Sequence record: OR352938.1
Reading direction: 5' to 3' (one strand)
Length of the DNA: 64,000 nt
From: Escherichia phage AV108
Shown here: piece by piece, positions 2,772-9,189 of the stretch
How the letters are laid out: every line of letters starts with the position of its first letter
Numbering within the stretch: the stretch's first letter is position 1
The notes under the pieces: model-generated
What the model was told of the DNA's origin: nothing
Database searches by the model: none
Seen by the model: the letters and a program-made list of their open reading frames with translations, nothing else
Position numbers and translations under genes: made by a program

Positions 2772-3797
2772 CTAACTTTTTGCGCTATTTACTTCGGCTA
2801 AAAGTTCATCAGAAATACGCTTGACCGCCGCAAGTTCTTCCGGTTCTAGGTTTTGTTCTTCCAGATATTCATAGACCATCTGAATAGTGCTTTTAACTTC
2901 AATAACACCTGTTTCCTGTGATGCGCTACTCTCCAGCTTATGGACCACTTTTAGCTTGTGCACAACGGCCTCTAACGCGCTTTCTAACTTAGTTAACCCA
3001 TTATCAGCAACCGTTGCGATAAGACGCACACTAAGCCCCTTAAAGCGTTCTACATCGATCTTATCATCTGACGGGTAAGTGATACGCACATGATAAGTTT
3101 TGTCATTCTGGATAAACTCTTTTTTGTGTGTATCGGTATCGAATACCCAAAACCCACGCGGATCGTTTTCGTCACCCGCCGTTAGTGTGTATGGTGTACC
3201 AATATACGTTACGTTACCGCCATCGCTGATAGTATGAAAATGACCAGAAAACACTTCACGGTATTTCTTGAGAAAGTCCGCGCTATAACCTTCGGATTTT
3301 AGCCCTTTATAGAAATAGTAACCGGACAATTCCCAATGGCCTACACAATATTCGCTGAATGAGTTTTGAATAAACTCTAAAATCTCTGATTTATTGTCAT
3401 CGCAAAACCACGGAAACAGATCAAATGATACACCATCAAAGGTAACTGTTTCCGGCTTATCAATAACTTTAATACAATCATATTGGCTTAACACTTCACG
3501 CGGTGCGTTAGGCTGGATCTTGTTTCGTTTAAACATATCATGGTTCCCGACCGTGATATAACAAGTAATACCAGCCTCTTCCAGTAGCGGGATGACCTTA
3601 GTACGGTTAAATTTCATGGTTTCATGGGTAATTGCTTTTCGGCAATCAAACCAATCCCCTGTTTGAATCCATGTCTTAATATTATGCTCTTTGGAGTATT
3701 CAACCGCCTTCTTGATGGTATCAAGAATATACTCATGCACCCACGGATCATCGCCACCGATACCAGTATGCAGATCACCTAAAAGCAAAATTTTCAT
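2772..3797 (-). CDS. 47: recombination endonuclease subunit gp47 (SbcD/Mre11-like phosphoesterase)
   Basis: 341 aa; MKILLLGDLHTG..., GNHD, GHWEL, GHFHT metallophosphatase motifs; near-colinear with T4 gp47 (339 aa) as recalled. Confidence 0.9.
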   Translation of the reverse strand: MKILLLGDLHTGIGGDDPWVHEYILDTIKKAVEYSKEHNIKTWIQTGDWFDCRKAITHETMKFNRTKVIPLLEEAGITCYITVGNHDMFKRNKIQPNAPREVLSQYDCIKVIDKPETVTFDGVSFDLFPWFCDDNKSEILEFIQNSFSEYCVGHWELSGYYFYKGLKSEGYSADFLKKYREVFSGHFHTISDGGNVTYIGTPYTLTAGDENDPRGFWVFDTDTHKKEFIQNDKTYHVRITYPSDDKIDVERFKGLSVRLIATVADNGLTKLESALEAVVHKLKVVHKLESSASQETGVIEVKSTIQMVYEYLEEQNLEPEELAAVKRISDELLAEVNSAKS

Positions 3798-3844
3798 AGT
3801 CTCTTCCTCTCTTCGTTTTCGATGCTCTCACTATATCACAGAAA

Positions 3845-3885
3845 AATAAAAAGGGAAACCCCTTTCAGAGTCTCCCTTATAAAGC
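3845..3885 (-). terminator. rho-independent terminator-like hairpin plus T-run between the 95-aa ORF and gene 47
   Basis: Minus-strand reading aaaggggtttcccttttt followed by atttttctg. Confidence 0.45.
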
Positions 3886-3887
3886 CA

Positions 3888-4175
3888 TTACAGCATACTT
3901 AATACCGTTTGCCGTGTACTAATCCACATAGCAGAAAGCAGTTCTGGCGTGTGTGGCTGTTTGTAGATATCACGTAATTTTCCGATAGCGTAGATATACG
4001 CATCACGATTATCATCGATGATAGCTTGTTCAGCCCACCGCTTAAGTCGTGCAATCTCTCGCGAGTTCTTACGCAAGATCTTTTCCGCTTTCTTAGCGGC
4101 TTTAGCCTCTAGTTCTGCTTGTACTTTGTCTACTTCATTCACTGCAATCTTGTCATGCTGTTCATCGTAAGTCAT
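3888..4175 (-). CDS. hypothetical early protein (95 aa, charged/coiled-coil)
   Basis: ORF track; KAAKKAEKILRK... basic helical segment. Confidence 0.5.
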   Translation of the reverse strand: MTYDEQHDKIAVNEVDKVQAELEAKAAKKAEKILRKNSREIARLKRWAEQAIIDDNRDAYIYAIGKLRDIYKQPHTPELLSAMWISTRQTVLSML

Positions 4176-4927: not shown

Positions 4928-4967
4928 TTCGCACCCTCGCTATTATTTAGGAAATAACCCGTTCGGG

Positions 4968-6437
4968 CTATTCCCCATTACCATTATACTTTCTTTGCTT
5001 AGTTATCCACACTCTAACCATCTCTACAGATTCGCCGTCAGACGGATCAAGAGTTTTTCCTTTTTTCTTCATGCGGTACTTAAATCCGTTAAATCTTGCA
5101 TTCTCTTGCTCGTTAAAGTCGAACATCTTTTTAAATGATTTTCGCCCTTTACGCTCACCGCATTCTAGCGGAATCATTCGGTCTGTTATTACATTGGCAT
5201 TAGGCAGAAACGTTTTTAGATAATCAACCAACGCCCAATCAGGAACATATAGATTAACATTCTCCTTGCTCTCGTTGTCTCTCAGGTTACAACGCAAACA
5301 TAATTGAAATGCTGGTTCCAGATAATCAGACACATGACGCGCTTTCAAAAACTCGTTTGTCGGGAGATCGCAACTATTAGCAAGACCTTTTAAAATATCA
5401 ATCTCCCATCGTTGAGGGTTAAAGCTGAACATCACAGCAACATTTTTATGATGAATGTAAGAGTTAAGACCATAAGATCCGTAAGGTATCCGCTCACCAA
5501 TACCATTTGTGCACGCTTCACGGTCCCGATTCACGGTATAAATGAAGTCATCACCACATTCATTTTTAACCATATCAACAAGACGTTCAAAGGTATTGTT
5601 TGTTTCTGACTGGTGACGCGACCATCGTTCGGAGTCCGTCATAAGGATGATATTAACTCTATCTGTATTTTTATACTCTTTGAAATATAGTCTGGATTCT
5701 AGCGCACTAGGAACAAAATCGCAATTTGCATAGTATCGTAGATACTTCCCACTATATGTATCAAAGAGATTTGCACATGCTATCGTAACCTTTTTAAAGT
5801 CTCCCCACGTACCGTGTTTGTTATCGTTCAAGAAAACAATTTTCGACCCATTCTTCCGGTGTCCTTCGTTATGTTTTACCATAACGTTGATTTTCTTCTC
5901 TAATAACGCCTCATAAAGCCCTCTAAGAGAAGAATCGATCATATCAGTACCATCCTTTGCACTTTCTATCTTTTCTTTGATAGCGGCCTTCTCAGAGTCT
6001 TTTAGAACTAAGTTCTGTAGGCATTCCGATTCGTCGGCGATTGGTTCGCAATGCTTCGTGATAAGTTCAAGATTAGACTTAAACGGATACTCATTAAATT
6101 CAACCAGTTGAGGAACTTCATCAATGTAAAGAGCATATTCACCAAACATTTTTGAACGTTCCATATTAGATAACGCTGTATGTGTAATGAATATCACATC
6201 AGCACCATCTTTAACTGATTGCATTATAGACGCTTGCACTGTCTTAAGGCTTCTTAGTCTTGTGCTATCAATCAAGACAGCACGACCGCCCATTCTTTTA
6301 AACTTATTGTAAGATTGTTCACTTAAAACACGAGATGGCGAAGCAATAACCGCTTTTTCTTTTGTCTCTAGGACGTGGGAAAGTATAGCATCAGTTTTCC
6401 CCGCCGCTGGCAATGCGATTAATGTTTCAATCTTCAT
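4968..6437 (-). CDS. P-loop NTPase with helicase-like motifs (489 aa), function unknown
   Basis: Walker A LPAAGKTD (aa 8-15), PTRxL-like ASPSRVLSEQ, Walker B/DExx-like ALYIDEVPQ about 90 aa downstream; start overlaps stop of upstream 101-aa ORF. Confidence 0.6.
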   Translation of the reverse strand: MKIETLIALPAAGKTDAILSHVLETKEKAVIASPSRVLSEQSYNKFKRMGGRAVLIDSTRLRSLKTVQASIMQSVKDGADVIFITHTALSNMERSKMFGEYALYIDEVPQLVEFNEYPFKSNLELITKHCEPIADESECLQNLVLKDSEKAAIKEKIESAKDGTDMIDSSLRGLYEALLEKKINVMVKHNEGHRKNGSKIVFLNDNKHGTWGDFKKVTIACANLFDTYSGKYLRYYANCDFVPSALESRLYFKEYKNTDRVNIILMTDSERWSRHQSETNNTFERLVDMVKNECGDDFIYTVNRDREACTNGIGERIPYGSYGLNSYIHHKNVAVMFSFNPQRWEIDILKGLANSCDLPTNEFLKARHVSDYLEPAFQLCLRCNLRDNESKENVNLYVPDWALVDYLKTFLPNANVITDRMIPLECGERKGRKSFKKMFDFNEQENARFNGFKYRMKKKGKTLDPSDGESVEMVRVWITKQRKYNGNGE

Positions 6438-6742
6438 TAGAAACCCTTACGTCGTGCTTTCTGGCATTTCTTGATCATTTTATCAGAAATTTCGCGCTTA
6501 GGTGCAATCTCTTTCACACCGAAAGCACTAATGCCAAATTCAGAGAGAATATATTCAACCAACAATTCACGCACACGCGCTTTACCGATATTCACGCCGT
6601 TATTTTTCAGATATGTCTGACCTTCGACTTGCATCAGATCTAAGTCTGCGTCGGTAATATTGATTTCTTCCATGCGCCCAAATCGAGAATAAACCATGTG
6701 TGCGATTGCATTGTGTACTAACATAATATATTCCTCACTCAA
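6437..6742 (-). CDS. hypothetical protein (101 aa), translationally coupled to the P-loop NTPase
   Basis: ORF track; stop overlaps start of 4968..6437. Confidence 0.5.
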   Translation of the reverse strand: MSEEYIMLVHNAIAHMVYSRFGRMEEINITDADLDLMQVEGQTYLKNNGVNIGKARVRELLVEYILSEFGISAFGVKEIAPKREISDKMIKKCQKARRKGF

Positions 6743-6744
6743 GA

Positions 6745-6903
6745 ATTACTTAATGATACTTACTTTACCAGATCCGTGACAATGAGCGCAACACCCATCA
6801 CCACGCAATCCTGTTCCGTTACAGTGTTTACACTTCTTCAAAGGTAAAGCCATTATAGCAAATAAAGCAATAATGAATACCGAAACTAAATTCTCAATAA
6901 TCA
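6745..6903 (-). CDS. small membrane-anchored zinc-finger peptide (~52 aa; coordinates approximate)
   Basis: Hand translation MIIENLVSVFIIALFAIMALPLKKCKHCNGTGLRGDGCCAHCHGSGKVSIIK: N-terminal hydrophobic helix then two CxxCxGxG motifs (DnaJ-type); below ORF-track size cut-off. Confidence 0.35.
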
Positions 6904-7163
6904 TAAATCGCCCTCAGTTCTTTATAGCCTCCAATGTGCTCGTTGTCAATGAATATCTGGGGGTATACAAACCGGAGGCTCTTTGAGTTCAGCCTCCCCG
7001 CCAGTTCTTCAATCATATCACGGTCGGGAATAATGTCAACCCCGACCTGCTTGAATACTGGTTTAAGTGTATACGGAATACCCAGATCATCCAGTAGCTT
7101 CATTGCACTAATACAACCATAACAATGATAAGCCTCTTTCGGTATGCCGTATATCTCGATCAT
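6894..7163 (-). CDS. nrdH: glutaredoxin/NrdH-like redoxin
   Basis: 89 aa; CYGC active-site CxxC near N-terminus; C-terminal IFIDNEHIGGYKEL glutaredoxin motif; near nrdG as in T4. Confidence 0.65.
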   Translation of the reverse strand: MIEIYGIPKEAYHCYGCISAMKLLDDLGIPYTLKPVFKQVGVDIIPDRDMIEELAGRLNSKSLRFVYPQIFIDNEHIGGYKELRAIYDY

Positions 7164-7660
7164 TTCTCAGCCTTTAATCTTTCTAGTTCTTCTTCCAGTT
7201 CCTTGATCCGTTGGTCACGTTCAAAGTCACGCTGCAACTTAGTGGCAAATACTCGTTTAAACTGTTTGTAATCATCGATTTTAAACACTTCTTCTTCGCC
7301 ATAGCGACGCACAGAAACTTCGTAGTTATTGAAGAATTGTTGCATCATTGCTTCGGATGATAGTTCTGCTGATACCACTTTAAAATATTGATCTTCGGTC
7401 GGTGAAAACCAATTACAAGCATAAAGATAAACCTTTTCATTGTCTGGACACTGGTAAGCCTTACCATCGATTTCAATCACAGAAACATATTCAGGTATAG
7501 TCGATGAATCAATAGCTAAGACTTTAAACTGACGGTCCCCGATAAACTCGGAGATCACACGATTCGCATCACTGGTTGCAAAGGCTTTACGCGCTTGTTC
7601 GCTTTTCCACTGATAGGTCATACCAACAACAAACATATTACCAACCTCGCTCTTTACCAA
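7160..7660 (-). CDS. paralog-family protein D (166 aa; WF-xxR-xFF domain plus C-terminal coiled coil)
   Basis: GMTYQWKSEQA, VIEIDGK, NWFSPTEDQYFKVV, tail RDQRIKELEEELERLKAEK; related to 7638..9189 and 13006..15643 ORFs. Confidence 0.55.
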   Translation of the reverse strand: MVKSEVGNMFVVGMTYQWKSEQARKAFATSDANRVISEFIGDRQFKVLAIDSSTIPEYVSVIEIDGKAYQCPDNEKVYLYACNWFSPTEDQYFKVVSAELSSEAMMQQFFNNYEVSVRRYGEEEVFKIDDYKQFKRVFATKLQRDFERDQRIKELEEELERLKAEK

Positions 7661-8171
7661 TCAAAAATTCAACTTCACGACGTTTAATATCTTCTTGAAG
7701 GTCTTTAATCTTCTGTCGATCTTGCATGATTTCATCCATCTTGTCAAGTGCTGCAATGAAATCATCGAAACGTTCAAAGGTTTTACCTTCATTTGCTTCG
7801 CTAAATTTAACCATAGTCAGACCGTAACGACTACTAAACAGACGTTTCAACTGTCCAACGATCTTAGAATCAGTGGTTATAACTTCCAATTCTTCTACTT
7901 CTTGAAAGAATTTTCTATCAGAATCAATAAACCAGCTAGTTCCTTTATGGTTGCTATCTTCGGTTGCACTCATTAGAGTATGGTCTTTACCATCAATTTC
8001 AATTACATCAATTTGCCCACATGGACTAACCTTTTTAACAGTAAAAGGTCTATAATTTATTGCTCGTGCAATAACATAATTAAGGTTAGATACGTTTTCA
8101 GCATAATGGCAGAAGTCGGTCATAGCATTCGCATCTTTCCAGGTGTAAGTTTTACCAATTTCCCATTTCAT
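7638..8171 (-). CDS. paralog-family protein C (177 aa)
   Basis: MKWEIGKTYTWKD, VIEIDGK, SWFIDSDRKFFQEV, charged C-terminal tail. Confidence 0.55.
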   Translation of the reverse strand: MKWEIGKTYTWKDANAMTDFCHYAENVSNLNYVIARAINYRPFTVKKVSPCGQIDVIEIDGKDHTLMSATEDSNHKGTSWFIDSDRKFFQEVEELEVITTDSKIVGQLKRLFSSRYGLTMVKFSEANEGKTFERFDDFIAALDKMDEIMQDRQKIKDLQEDIKRREVEFLIGKERGW

Positions 8172-8183
8172 AATATATTCCCC

Positions 8184-8663
8184 TTAACCGATTTTATCAA
8201 GTTCGTTTAATGCTTTCTCTGCTTCCTGTATAGCTTGCACCCTTTCCGGCATTTTGTCAAGAAAATCTTTCAACTCTTCAAAACTGGAGATATGACGCAA
8301 GGCGTTAGCACCGATAGCCGCATGTGATTTGCATTCAAAGCGGATTTTATAATTATCCATCGCCAACTTGAGAAGATCAATTAATTTAGATTCTTCTGGA
8401 ATAATAATTTCTTCAAATCTGCTACGGTCATGATCCAGAAACCAACAAGATAGACCTACATCGGTTGAACTCATATAAGTTCCATCATGAAGATAAACAG
8501 ACCGCACGTATCCTTTTTTCGCATCAACCGACGCAACTTTAAACGGTAATCGCAGATATTTCAAATAATCAACATCATACCATTTAAAAAATTGGTTTGC
8601 ATCTTTTACATCTTTCCACGCATAGGTCTTACCAGCTTCCCATTTCATAATATCATCTCTCAT
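8184..8663 (-). CDS. paralog-family protein B (159 aa)
   Basis: MKWEAGKTYAWKD, CWFLDHDRSRFEEI, helical C-terminus. Confidence 0.55.
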   Translation of the reverse strand: MRDDIMKWEAGKTYAWKDVKDANQFFKWYDVDYLKYLRLPFKVASVDAKKGYVRSVYLHDGTYMSSTDVGLSCWFLDHDRSRFEEIIIPEESKLIDLLKLAMDNYKIRFECKSHAAIGANALRHISSFEELKDFLDKMPERVQAIQEAEKALNELDKIG

Positions 8664-9189
8664 TTTTGATACGTGATTCTAATTGGATCATACGGTCGCG
8701 CGTTTGTTTGTATTCTCGGATAGCACCGATCCGGCTAGGCATACCATCCAGTACGCTCTTAATACCTTCTAGGGTAGTAATTTTGGCAATGCTATTATGT
8801 AACCCCATCTTATCGATCAACTGAATGTCGTAGGCTTCCATAAGCAGACCCAAGCGTTCTAAAGTTAGGTCTTCTTCTTTTTCTTCCGAATCTGGAATCT
8901 TAGGTTCAATAGTAACTTCGGTAAAGAAACGACGCTCACCCGACCAAAACCACACGCCGGAACAACCAATAGGGGATTCTTTTAACGTCATAGAGTCGAA
9001 ATTACTACCAATAATAGTAATTTCTCTAACATCACCATCATCGTCAAGGTCTTCTACCCTAAACGGGCGACCAGCCAACAGGTCAACAATACATCTGTTA
9101 ATAGACGACGAAAATTTAGTCAGTTCGGCTTTCGACGCTTCACATTCAATCTTGTAAGTTTTACCAACTTCCCATTCCATAATAATCAC
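8653..9189 (-). CDS. paralog-family protein A (178 aa)
   Basis: MEWEVGKTYKIE, VWFWSGERRFFTEV, C-terminal IREYKQTRDRMIQLESRIKNER. Confidence 0.55.
   Translation of the reverse strand: MIIMEWEVGKTYKIECEASKAELTKFSSSINRCIVDLLAGRPFRVEDLDDDGDVREITIIGSNFDSMTLKESPIGCSGVWFWSGERRFFTEVTIEPKIPDSEEKEEDLTLERLGLLMEAYDIQLIDKMGLHNSIAKITTLEGIKSVLDGMPSRIGAIREYKQTRDRMIQLESRIKNER

Follow-up and report, generated by a model that had tools for sequence, protein, structure and literature searches.

A predicted superfamily 2 helicase with XPD/DinG-like topology encoded between genes 55.2 and 55 of Escherichia phage AV108

Which protein do T4-related phages encode in the slot between genes 55.2 and 55, and does it form a functional pair with the small gene that precedes it? 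The question is raised by a stretch of 64,000 nucleotides (nt) from Escherichia phage AV108 (OR352938.1), hereafter the window, in which a first-pass annotation had described a large NTPase of 489 amino acids (aa) coupled to a partner of 101 aa. Both open reading frames (ORFs) exist at the positions proposed, the large one at 4968..6437 with an ATG start and the small one at 6437..6742. They lie on the minus strand, as does every gene of this region, and all features given below are on that strand. The 2.9-kb region around the 489-aa ORF is 99.2-99.3 % identical to Escherichia phages ECD7 and RB49 and to other Krischvirus genomes; judged by these nucleotide identities, the window belongs to an RB49-like (Krischvirus) phage related to T4. 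The earlier description of an uncharacterised NTPase with helicase motifs and without a T4 counterpart was borne out, whereas a C-terminus free of motifs and an anonymous, dedicated partner had to be given up.

The RB49 protein RB49ORF044c (AAQ15319.1), annotated "hypothetical protein", has the same sequence as the 489-aa protein (100 % identity). The latter matched phrog_2467 in PHROGs (E 8.8e-175), listed there as of unknown function, and the Pfam family DEAD with 27.4 bits (cut-off 26, E 3.3e-6), a match spanning only residues 11-130. Homologues were detected by tblastn in 243 phage records. Because of these three results, the ORF has to be seen as a real gene, not a chance ORF. No meaningful match was obtained in NCBIfam, nor in searches of PDB sequences with the single sequence or a profile. 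Among the tblastn matches, the Krischvirus copies had at least 95 % identity and all others, in non-T-even T4-like phages, less than 60 %; T4 and the T-even phages yielded no counterpart by tblastn, in agreement with the earlier failure to assign the protein to a named T4 protein. UniRef and the NCBI PGAP annotation name copies "DEAD/DEAH-box helicase domain-containing/family protein", and one phage record reads "putative helicase".

When 28 homologues with 33-74 % identity to the window protein were aligned (alignment A1), the full set of superfamily 2 (SF2) helicase motifs, I, Ia, Ib, II, III, IV, V and VI, became apparent, with invariant key residues. The predicted product is a whole SF2 helicase core, reaching beyond an N-terminal P-loop. 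The first part of RecA-like domain 1 (residues 1-109; 6111..6437) holds motif I or Walker A (PAAGKT, residues 10-15), motif Ia (ASxSRxLSxQS, in the window ASPSRVLSEQS, residues 32-42, nt 6312-6344), motif Ib (FITH, residues 83-86, nt 6180-6191) and motif II or Walker B (DEVP, residues 106-109). Invariant residues in this part are P10, G13, K14, T15, S33, L38, Q41, S42, F83, T85, D106, E107 and P109. The first-pass annotation had correctly picked up LPAAGKT (residues 9-15, nt 6393-6413), YIDEVP (residues 104-109, nt 6111-6128) and a PTRxL-like motif, which is SPSRVL within motif Ia. A Q motif is absent, with just 8 residues ahead of LPAAGKT. The C-terminal 300 residues, formerly taken as motif-free, comprise a putative Arch-like insert, motif III, RecA-like domain 2 with motifs IV, V and VI, and a basic tail. 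This insert of about 105 residues separates motif II from motif III (residues 110-215; 5793..6110) and has C130, D165, L178, D205, W211 and F214 invariant. It is followed by the end of RecA-like domain 1 and by RecA-like domain 2 (together residues 216-420; 5178..5792), with motif III (TIAxAN, in the window TIACAN, residues 218-223, nt 5769-5786), motif IV (FIYTxNxxR, in the window FIYTVNRDR, residues 298-306, nt 5520-5546), motif V (GLNxY, residues 323-327; YGSYGLNSY at nt 5457-5483) and motif VI (QLCxRxxxR, in the window QLCLRCNLR, residues 378-386, nt 5280-5306). A linker modelled with low confidence and two helices complete the protein (residues 421-489 plus the stop codon; 4968..5177). 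This tail is basic, with 17 K/R versus 10 D/E and with E445 and W477 invariant; any likeness to a small helical DNA-binding module is speculative, and an alignment with the IclR helix-turn-helix (HTH) was weak and not significant.

The AlphaFold2 model built on A1 reached a mean predicted local distance difference test score (pLDDT) of 87.7 and a predicted template modelling score of 0.76, with pLDDT values below 50 only at residues 426-431 and the final three. Ten of the eleven top matches in a Foldseek search against the PDB were XPD, DinG or CasDinG structures, led by XPD (3crw, rank 1, E 5.9e-10), CasDinG (8s35_M), S. tokodaii XPD (2vl7) and E. coli DinG (6fwr). The XPD/DinG structures aligned over 311-368 residues, versus about 240-260 for generic SF2 matches spanning both RecA domains, an excess of 60-110 residues. 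In XPD, the Arch domain lies between motifs II and III. The insertion of the phage protein, modelled as a mixture of strands and helices, may be an Arch-like domain, an assignment made from its position and the extra aligned length. Neither an iron-sulfur (Fe-S) domain nor a vestige of one was present in the about 60 residues between motifs Ia and II, and C130 and C380 are the sole invariant cysteines in A1. The protein shares with XPD, Rad3 and DinG, including the Fe-S-less S. aureus DinG and CasDinG, the two RecA domains, an insert in RecA-like domain 1 between motifs II and III, and a motif VI of the Q...R...R type (Q378, R382 and R386, invariant in A1). It differs from them in the missing Fe-S domain and cysteine cluster, in an insert much smaller than a full Arch domain, in the absent Q motif and in a motif II that reads DEVP and not DEAH. 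With 489 aa it is also shorter than most of the matched XPD, DinG and CasDinG chains (551-896 aa), S. tokodaii Xpd4 having 459 aa.

The wider family offers a view on the setting in which such a protein may have arisen. An exhaustive profile search returned 1327 cluster representatives at E<=1e-3 and 766 at E<=1e-10, in two size classes of 450-550 aa and 750-890 aa; the long forms account for about 40 % of the 150 best representatives of the 1327. They share the helicase core with the same motif residues invariant (alignment A2), including the Q-x3-R-x3-R of motif VI. For one of them (P0043, 799 aa, about 23 % identical), an independent model with a pLDDT of 84.3 had DinG, XPD and CasDinG as first Foldseek matches. 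The long forms carry a C-terminal extension of about 330 residues with the conserved motifs LDxDGG, NxxS...RYRVxIP and SGxDxSK...FYLPC and end in four helices with G.RN..FF.L; Pfam PriCT_1 gave a weak match in 2 of 12 long forms (best E 8.4e-4), and a PDB profile search with the C-terminal domain found nothing. We interpret the extension as an archaeo-eukaryotic-primase-like domain with a PriCT. A search of plasmids gave three partial matches, and three long forms were located in bacterial DNA. Two of these, on near-identical metagenomic bacterial contigs (L041, L042), directly follow a P4-type integrase and an HTH_17 gene and precede cargo genes; the third (L040) lies in a Bradyrhizobium chromosome without an integrase within 10 kb. 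A distant relative in the Agrobacterium jumbo phage Atu_ph07 (L034), likewise a long form, has no such integrase nearby. The slot after integrase and HTH gene is where an island usually carries its replication protein. Since the long forms carry a primase-like domain and sit in mobile-element contexts, they suggest that the helicase module originally belonged to mobile-element DNA replication. They are possibly undescribed replication proteins of mobile or integrative elements that join an SF2 helicase to a primase. In the two island contigs, they take the same slot, after integrase and AlpA-like HTH gene, as the P4 alpha-type primase-helicases, and like these they would combine a helicase with a primase-like domain. 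The long forms have the SF2/XPD-like helicase at the N-terminus, however, while the P4 alpha-type has an N-terminal primase joined to an SF3 or SF4 helicase. The window phage protein lacks the primase-like domain, unlike both.

From motifs, model and family context, we consider the 489-aa protein to be probably an ATP-driven SF2 motor of XPD/DinG-like topology that serves phage replication, recombination or repair as an accessory DNA helicase or translocase. Its architecture would be RecA-like domain 1 with an Arch-like insert between motifs II and III, RecA-like domain 2 and a short basic helical tail, without an Fe-S domain. It would act on phage DNA intermediates, where it might open forks, D-loops or R-loops or remove obstacles, and would supplement gp41 and Dda; RB49 also encodes dda and gene 41. 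The presumed substrate is DNA, not RNA, and by analogy with XPD and DinG the polarity would be 5'-3'. In its putative replication or repair role, it would resemble T4 UvsW (SF2) and Dda (SF1B) as a non-replicative helicase of a T4-like phage. Expression would be early: the protein may be made as a pre-late gene product together with the neighbouring nrdH-55.2 genes. A candidate sigma-70-type early promoter, TTGACA-16-TATGAT with an extended TG (7012..7039; 11/12 consensus matches), was tentatively placed inside nrdH, upstream of ORF046c, 55.2 and the helicase gene, and no match to the T4-type late promoter TATAAATA was found near these genes.

Several observations weigh against this reading. 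The Foldseek template modelling scores were modest (0.43-0.52). The XPD Fe-S domain helps to split the duplex, so without it the mechanism and polarity may differ from those of XPD. At the sequence level the protein fails membership of the XPD/DinG family: Pfam DEAD_2 (PF06733) and Helicase_C_2 (PF13307) gave no match at E<=1, the A1 profile retrieved no DinG or XPD chain among PDB sequences, and an hhalign comparison of the family profile to E. coli DinG detected nothing (probability 0.6 %). The same comparison to E. coli RhlE was uninformative, with only the expected alignment of motifs I to II; both comparisons used a single sequence on the E. coli side. The primase identity of the long forms depends on motif patterns and the two PriCT_1 matches, and the whole-protein fold search of a long form returned helicases only, without confirmation of a primase. 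The expression timing depends on a consensus scan, and sigma-70-like sites in the region did not exceed the shuffled expectation. A literature search found no functional study of the family, only a table in a comparative-genomics paper from 2006, in which RB49ORF044c was listed with a weak DEAD/DEAH Pfam match (E 0.069; Nolan et al. 2006, PMC1524935). A distinct SF2 family that has XPD/DinG-like topology and lacks an Fe-S domain is the most fitting description of the protein.

The small upstream ORF proved to be no stranger. It spans 101 aa from a TTG start or 95 aa from an ATG at 6724; the ATG is the likelier start because a GAGG Shine-Dalgarno sequence lies 8 nt upstream and this start is annotated in RB49. 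The product matched Pfam DUF7570 with E 1.4e-28 and 99.2 bits (cut-off 27), shared about 42 % identity with gp55.2 from T-even phages (RB14 and RB32, for example), and its counterparts in RB49 and RB43 are annotated 55.2. By these matches it is a homologue of T4 gp55.2, in the same place between nrdH and gene 55. In experiments, T4 gp55.2 inhibited E. coli topoisomerase I (Topo I) and provided a small fitness advantage (PMC4396842). This activity has been shown only for the T4 protein, and the Krischvirus copy is known by sequence. In T4, 55.2 is followed by 55.1, in the Krischvirus phages by the helicase gene. The supposed dedication of the small protein to its large neighbour does not stand: tblastn found 55.2 in 1092 phage records, most without the helicase, which occurs in 243, so in T4 and most relatives gp55.2 does not need the helicase to function. 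The translational coupling proposed earlier is borne out by the sequence TAATG at 6435-6439, where the stop codon of the small ORF overlaps the ATG of the helicase gene, and AAGGG sits 6 nt upstream of this ATG. According to the ORF list, three to four further junctions in the same gene run have overlapping stop and start codons as well.

Gene order was compared in 33 T4-like loci from phages of Escherichia, Aeromonas, Proteus, Morganella, Serratia, Erwinia, Cronobacter, Citrobacter and Enterobacter. The T-even phage RB14 has the order nrdH-55.6-55.5-55.4-55.3-55.2-55.1-ORF-55-a-gt.5-a-gt.4...a-gt, the window and RB49 have nrdH-ORF046c-55.2-helicase-55-a-gt.5-a-gt.4-(HNH in RB49)-47. The helicase fills the 55.2-to-55 slot that 55.1 holds in T-even phages; the earlier placement in the interval of the T4 alpha-glucosyltransferase has to be corrected, as gene 55 lies between this slot and a-gt. 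Across the 33 loci, the phages maintain the order nrdH-55.2-helicase-55. A 55.2-family ORF was found upstream of the helicase gene in 32 of them, within about 2.3 kb (hidden Markov model E-values 1e-12 to 1e-40), and abuts or overlaps it directly in about 23, from several genera. Two to five other ORFs intervene in the Aeromonas phages 25, 44RR and Aes508, and others do so in Erwinia phage Cronus and the Serratia-type loci. RB43-like phages have gene 34 after the helicase gene; in all other loci that extend far enough, this place is taken by gene 55. Helicase identity to the window protein correlates with gp55 identity (r = 0.87, n = 20, the loci not being phylogenetically independent). Because the divergence of the helicase parallels that of gp55, the data fit vertical inheritance from an early T4-like ancestor with a loss in the T-even lineage. 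Bacterial genomes contained just two close relatives, each with a 55.2 homologue immediately upstream: one on a 43-kb contig of a "Bacilli bacterium MAG" assembly (L035), the other on a 178-kb contig of a "Flagellimonas marina" assembly (L036). We rejected them as bacterial genes; they are most likely mis-binned or co-assembled contigs of T4-like phages, given 55.2 upstream in both and a length of 178 kb that fits a T4-like genome. In Aes508 (L002, 2429-3004) and 44RR2.8t (L037, 1941-2504), the place of 55.2 is taken by an ORF of 187-191 aa that overlaps the start codon of the helicase gene and contains a GIGSRETP motif; its RefSeq name "DprA-like DNA recombination-mediator protein" was not confirmed by any Pfam or NCBIfam match.

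The adjacency suggests a functional module of helicase and gp55.2. Defects in topA favour R-loops, structures that E. coli DinG unwinds; gp55.2 could bind and inhibit host Topo I, while the helicase handles the hyper-negative supercoiling and R-loops or works with the captured Topo I, a partnership modelled on RecQ-Topo III or on reverse gyrase, in which a helicase is combined with a type IA topoisomerase. The TAATG overlap, the presence of 55.2 close upstream in 32 of the 33 loci and the experimentally shown inhibition of Topo I by the T4 protein (PMC4396842) speak for such a module, which we nevertheless regard as unlikely. The genes differ more than fourfold in their phage records, and T-even phages keep 55.2 in place with 55.1 in the helicase slot, so an ancestral gene order explains the adjacency. 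One to five ORFs separate the two genes in the Aeromonas, Erwinia Cronus and Serratia-type loci, a search within 6 kb of the Atu_ph07 gene returned no 55.2 homologue, the annotation shows none close to the bacterial long forms (L040-L042), and overlapping stop and start codons are general in these genomes. An obligate pair was rejected on the phyletic counts and the variable spacing. The coupling is accounted for by a conserved, tightly packed gene order and not by an obligate two-component system, and nothing was found that specifically supports a functional link. The further proposal of one phage-built machine, in which gp55.2 captures Topo I and the helicase uses it or removes the resulting R-loops to control DNA topology and origin R-loops, is very doubtful.

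A role in host interaction or counter-defence, in which the ATPase strips, titrates or evades a defence protein or another host DNA-bound protein, finds some backing in the variable accessory region between nrdH and 55, where T4 has the host-modulating ORFs 55.1 and 55.2, in the absence of the gene from T-even phages, which makes it dispensable to the T4 core programme, and in structural neighbours that include the defence helicases CasDinG, Hna and DdmD. Against it, the PADLOC families gave one match at chance level only, the relatives fused to a primase-like domain occupy replication positions in mobile elements, and position and sequence are conserved in phages of Escherichia, Aeromonas, Proteus, Erwinia, Cronobacter and other hosts in parallel to gp55, unlike fast-turnover anti-defence genes; we judge this role unlikely as well. 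Most improbable appears a DEAD-box-type RNA helicase acting on phage or host RNA, although Pfam DEAD/DEAH is the sole curated family match and UniRef and PGAP use the name DEAD/DEAH-box helicase. The protein has no Q motif, reads DEVP instead of DEAD in motif II and CAN instead of SAT in motif III, and contains the 105-residue insertion between them; its top structural neighbours are DNA helicases, with DEAD-box proteins scoring lower and aligning to one RecA domain only, and its relatives are fused to a primase-like domain. On the favoured reading, the helicase gene is an ordinary accessory gene of DNA metabolism and not a new kind of system.

The surroundings of the two genes show further features. 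The helicase stop codon and gene 55, which starts with GTG, are 40 nt apart (4928-4967). In this spacer a short hairpin, AGCCCGAACGGGTT, precedes ATTTCC; a weak terminator or a signal for RNA processing is conceivable here, and the terminator scan did not report the hairpin on the minus strand. An Rfam scan of the window yielded nothing. Between a-gt.4 (3888..4175) and gene 47 (2772..3797) lie 90 nt (3798-3887); at this place RB49 has a 555-nt HNH/AP2 homing-endonuclease gene (RB49ORF040c) that the window phage lacks. Upstream, between nrdH and 55.2, a 52-aa ORF (6746-6904; RB49ORF046c) encodes a hydrophobic N-terminal helix and two CxxCxGxG repeats (CKHCNGTG, CAHCHGSG) resembling a DnaJ zinc finger, with a weak Pfam match to DnaJ_CXXCXGXG (E 0.041). 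Four tandem paralogous ORFs of 166, 177, 159 and 178 aa follow at 7160-9189, 22-27 % identical to the first, with an N-terminal WExGKTYxWK motif, a WF motif and a coiled-coil-like C-terminal end in common. They match no Pfam family and correspond to RB49ORF048c-051c, the third having 177 aa here versus 274 aa in RB49.

Phage DNA replication has its reference model in T4, whose three helicases gp41, Dda and UvsW are well studied. A further conserved helicase, different in architecture, is found in many non-T-even relatives of T4, among them RB49, RB43 and phages of Aeromonas, Proteus, Erwinia and Cronobacter; it has never been studied because T4 itself lacks the gene. For annotation, the large ORF gains the description "SF2 helicase, XPD/DinG-like fold" and the small ORF "gp55.2-family protein". 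The helicase could serve as a minimal Fe-S-free model of the XPD fold, and its role would inform on replication stress, recombination or R-loop handling in these phages, some of which are therapeutic candidates.

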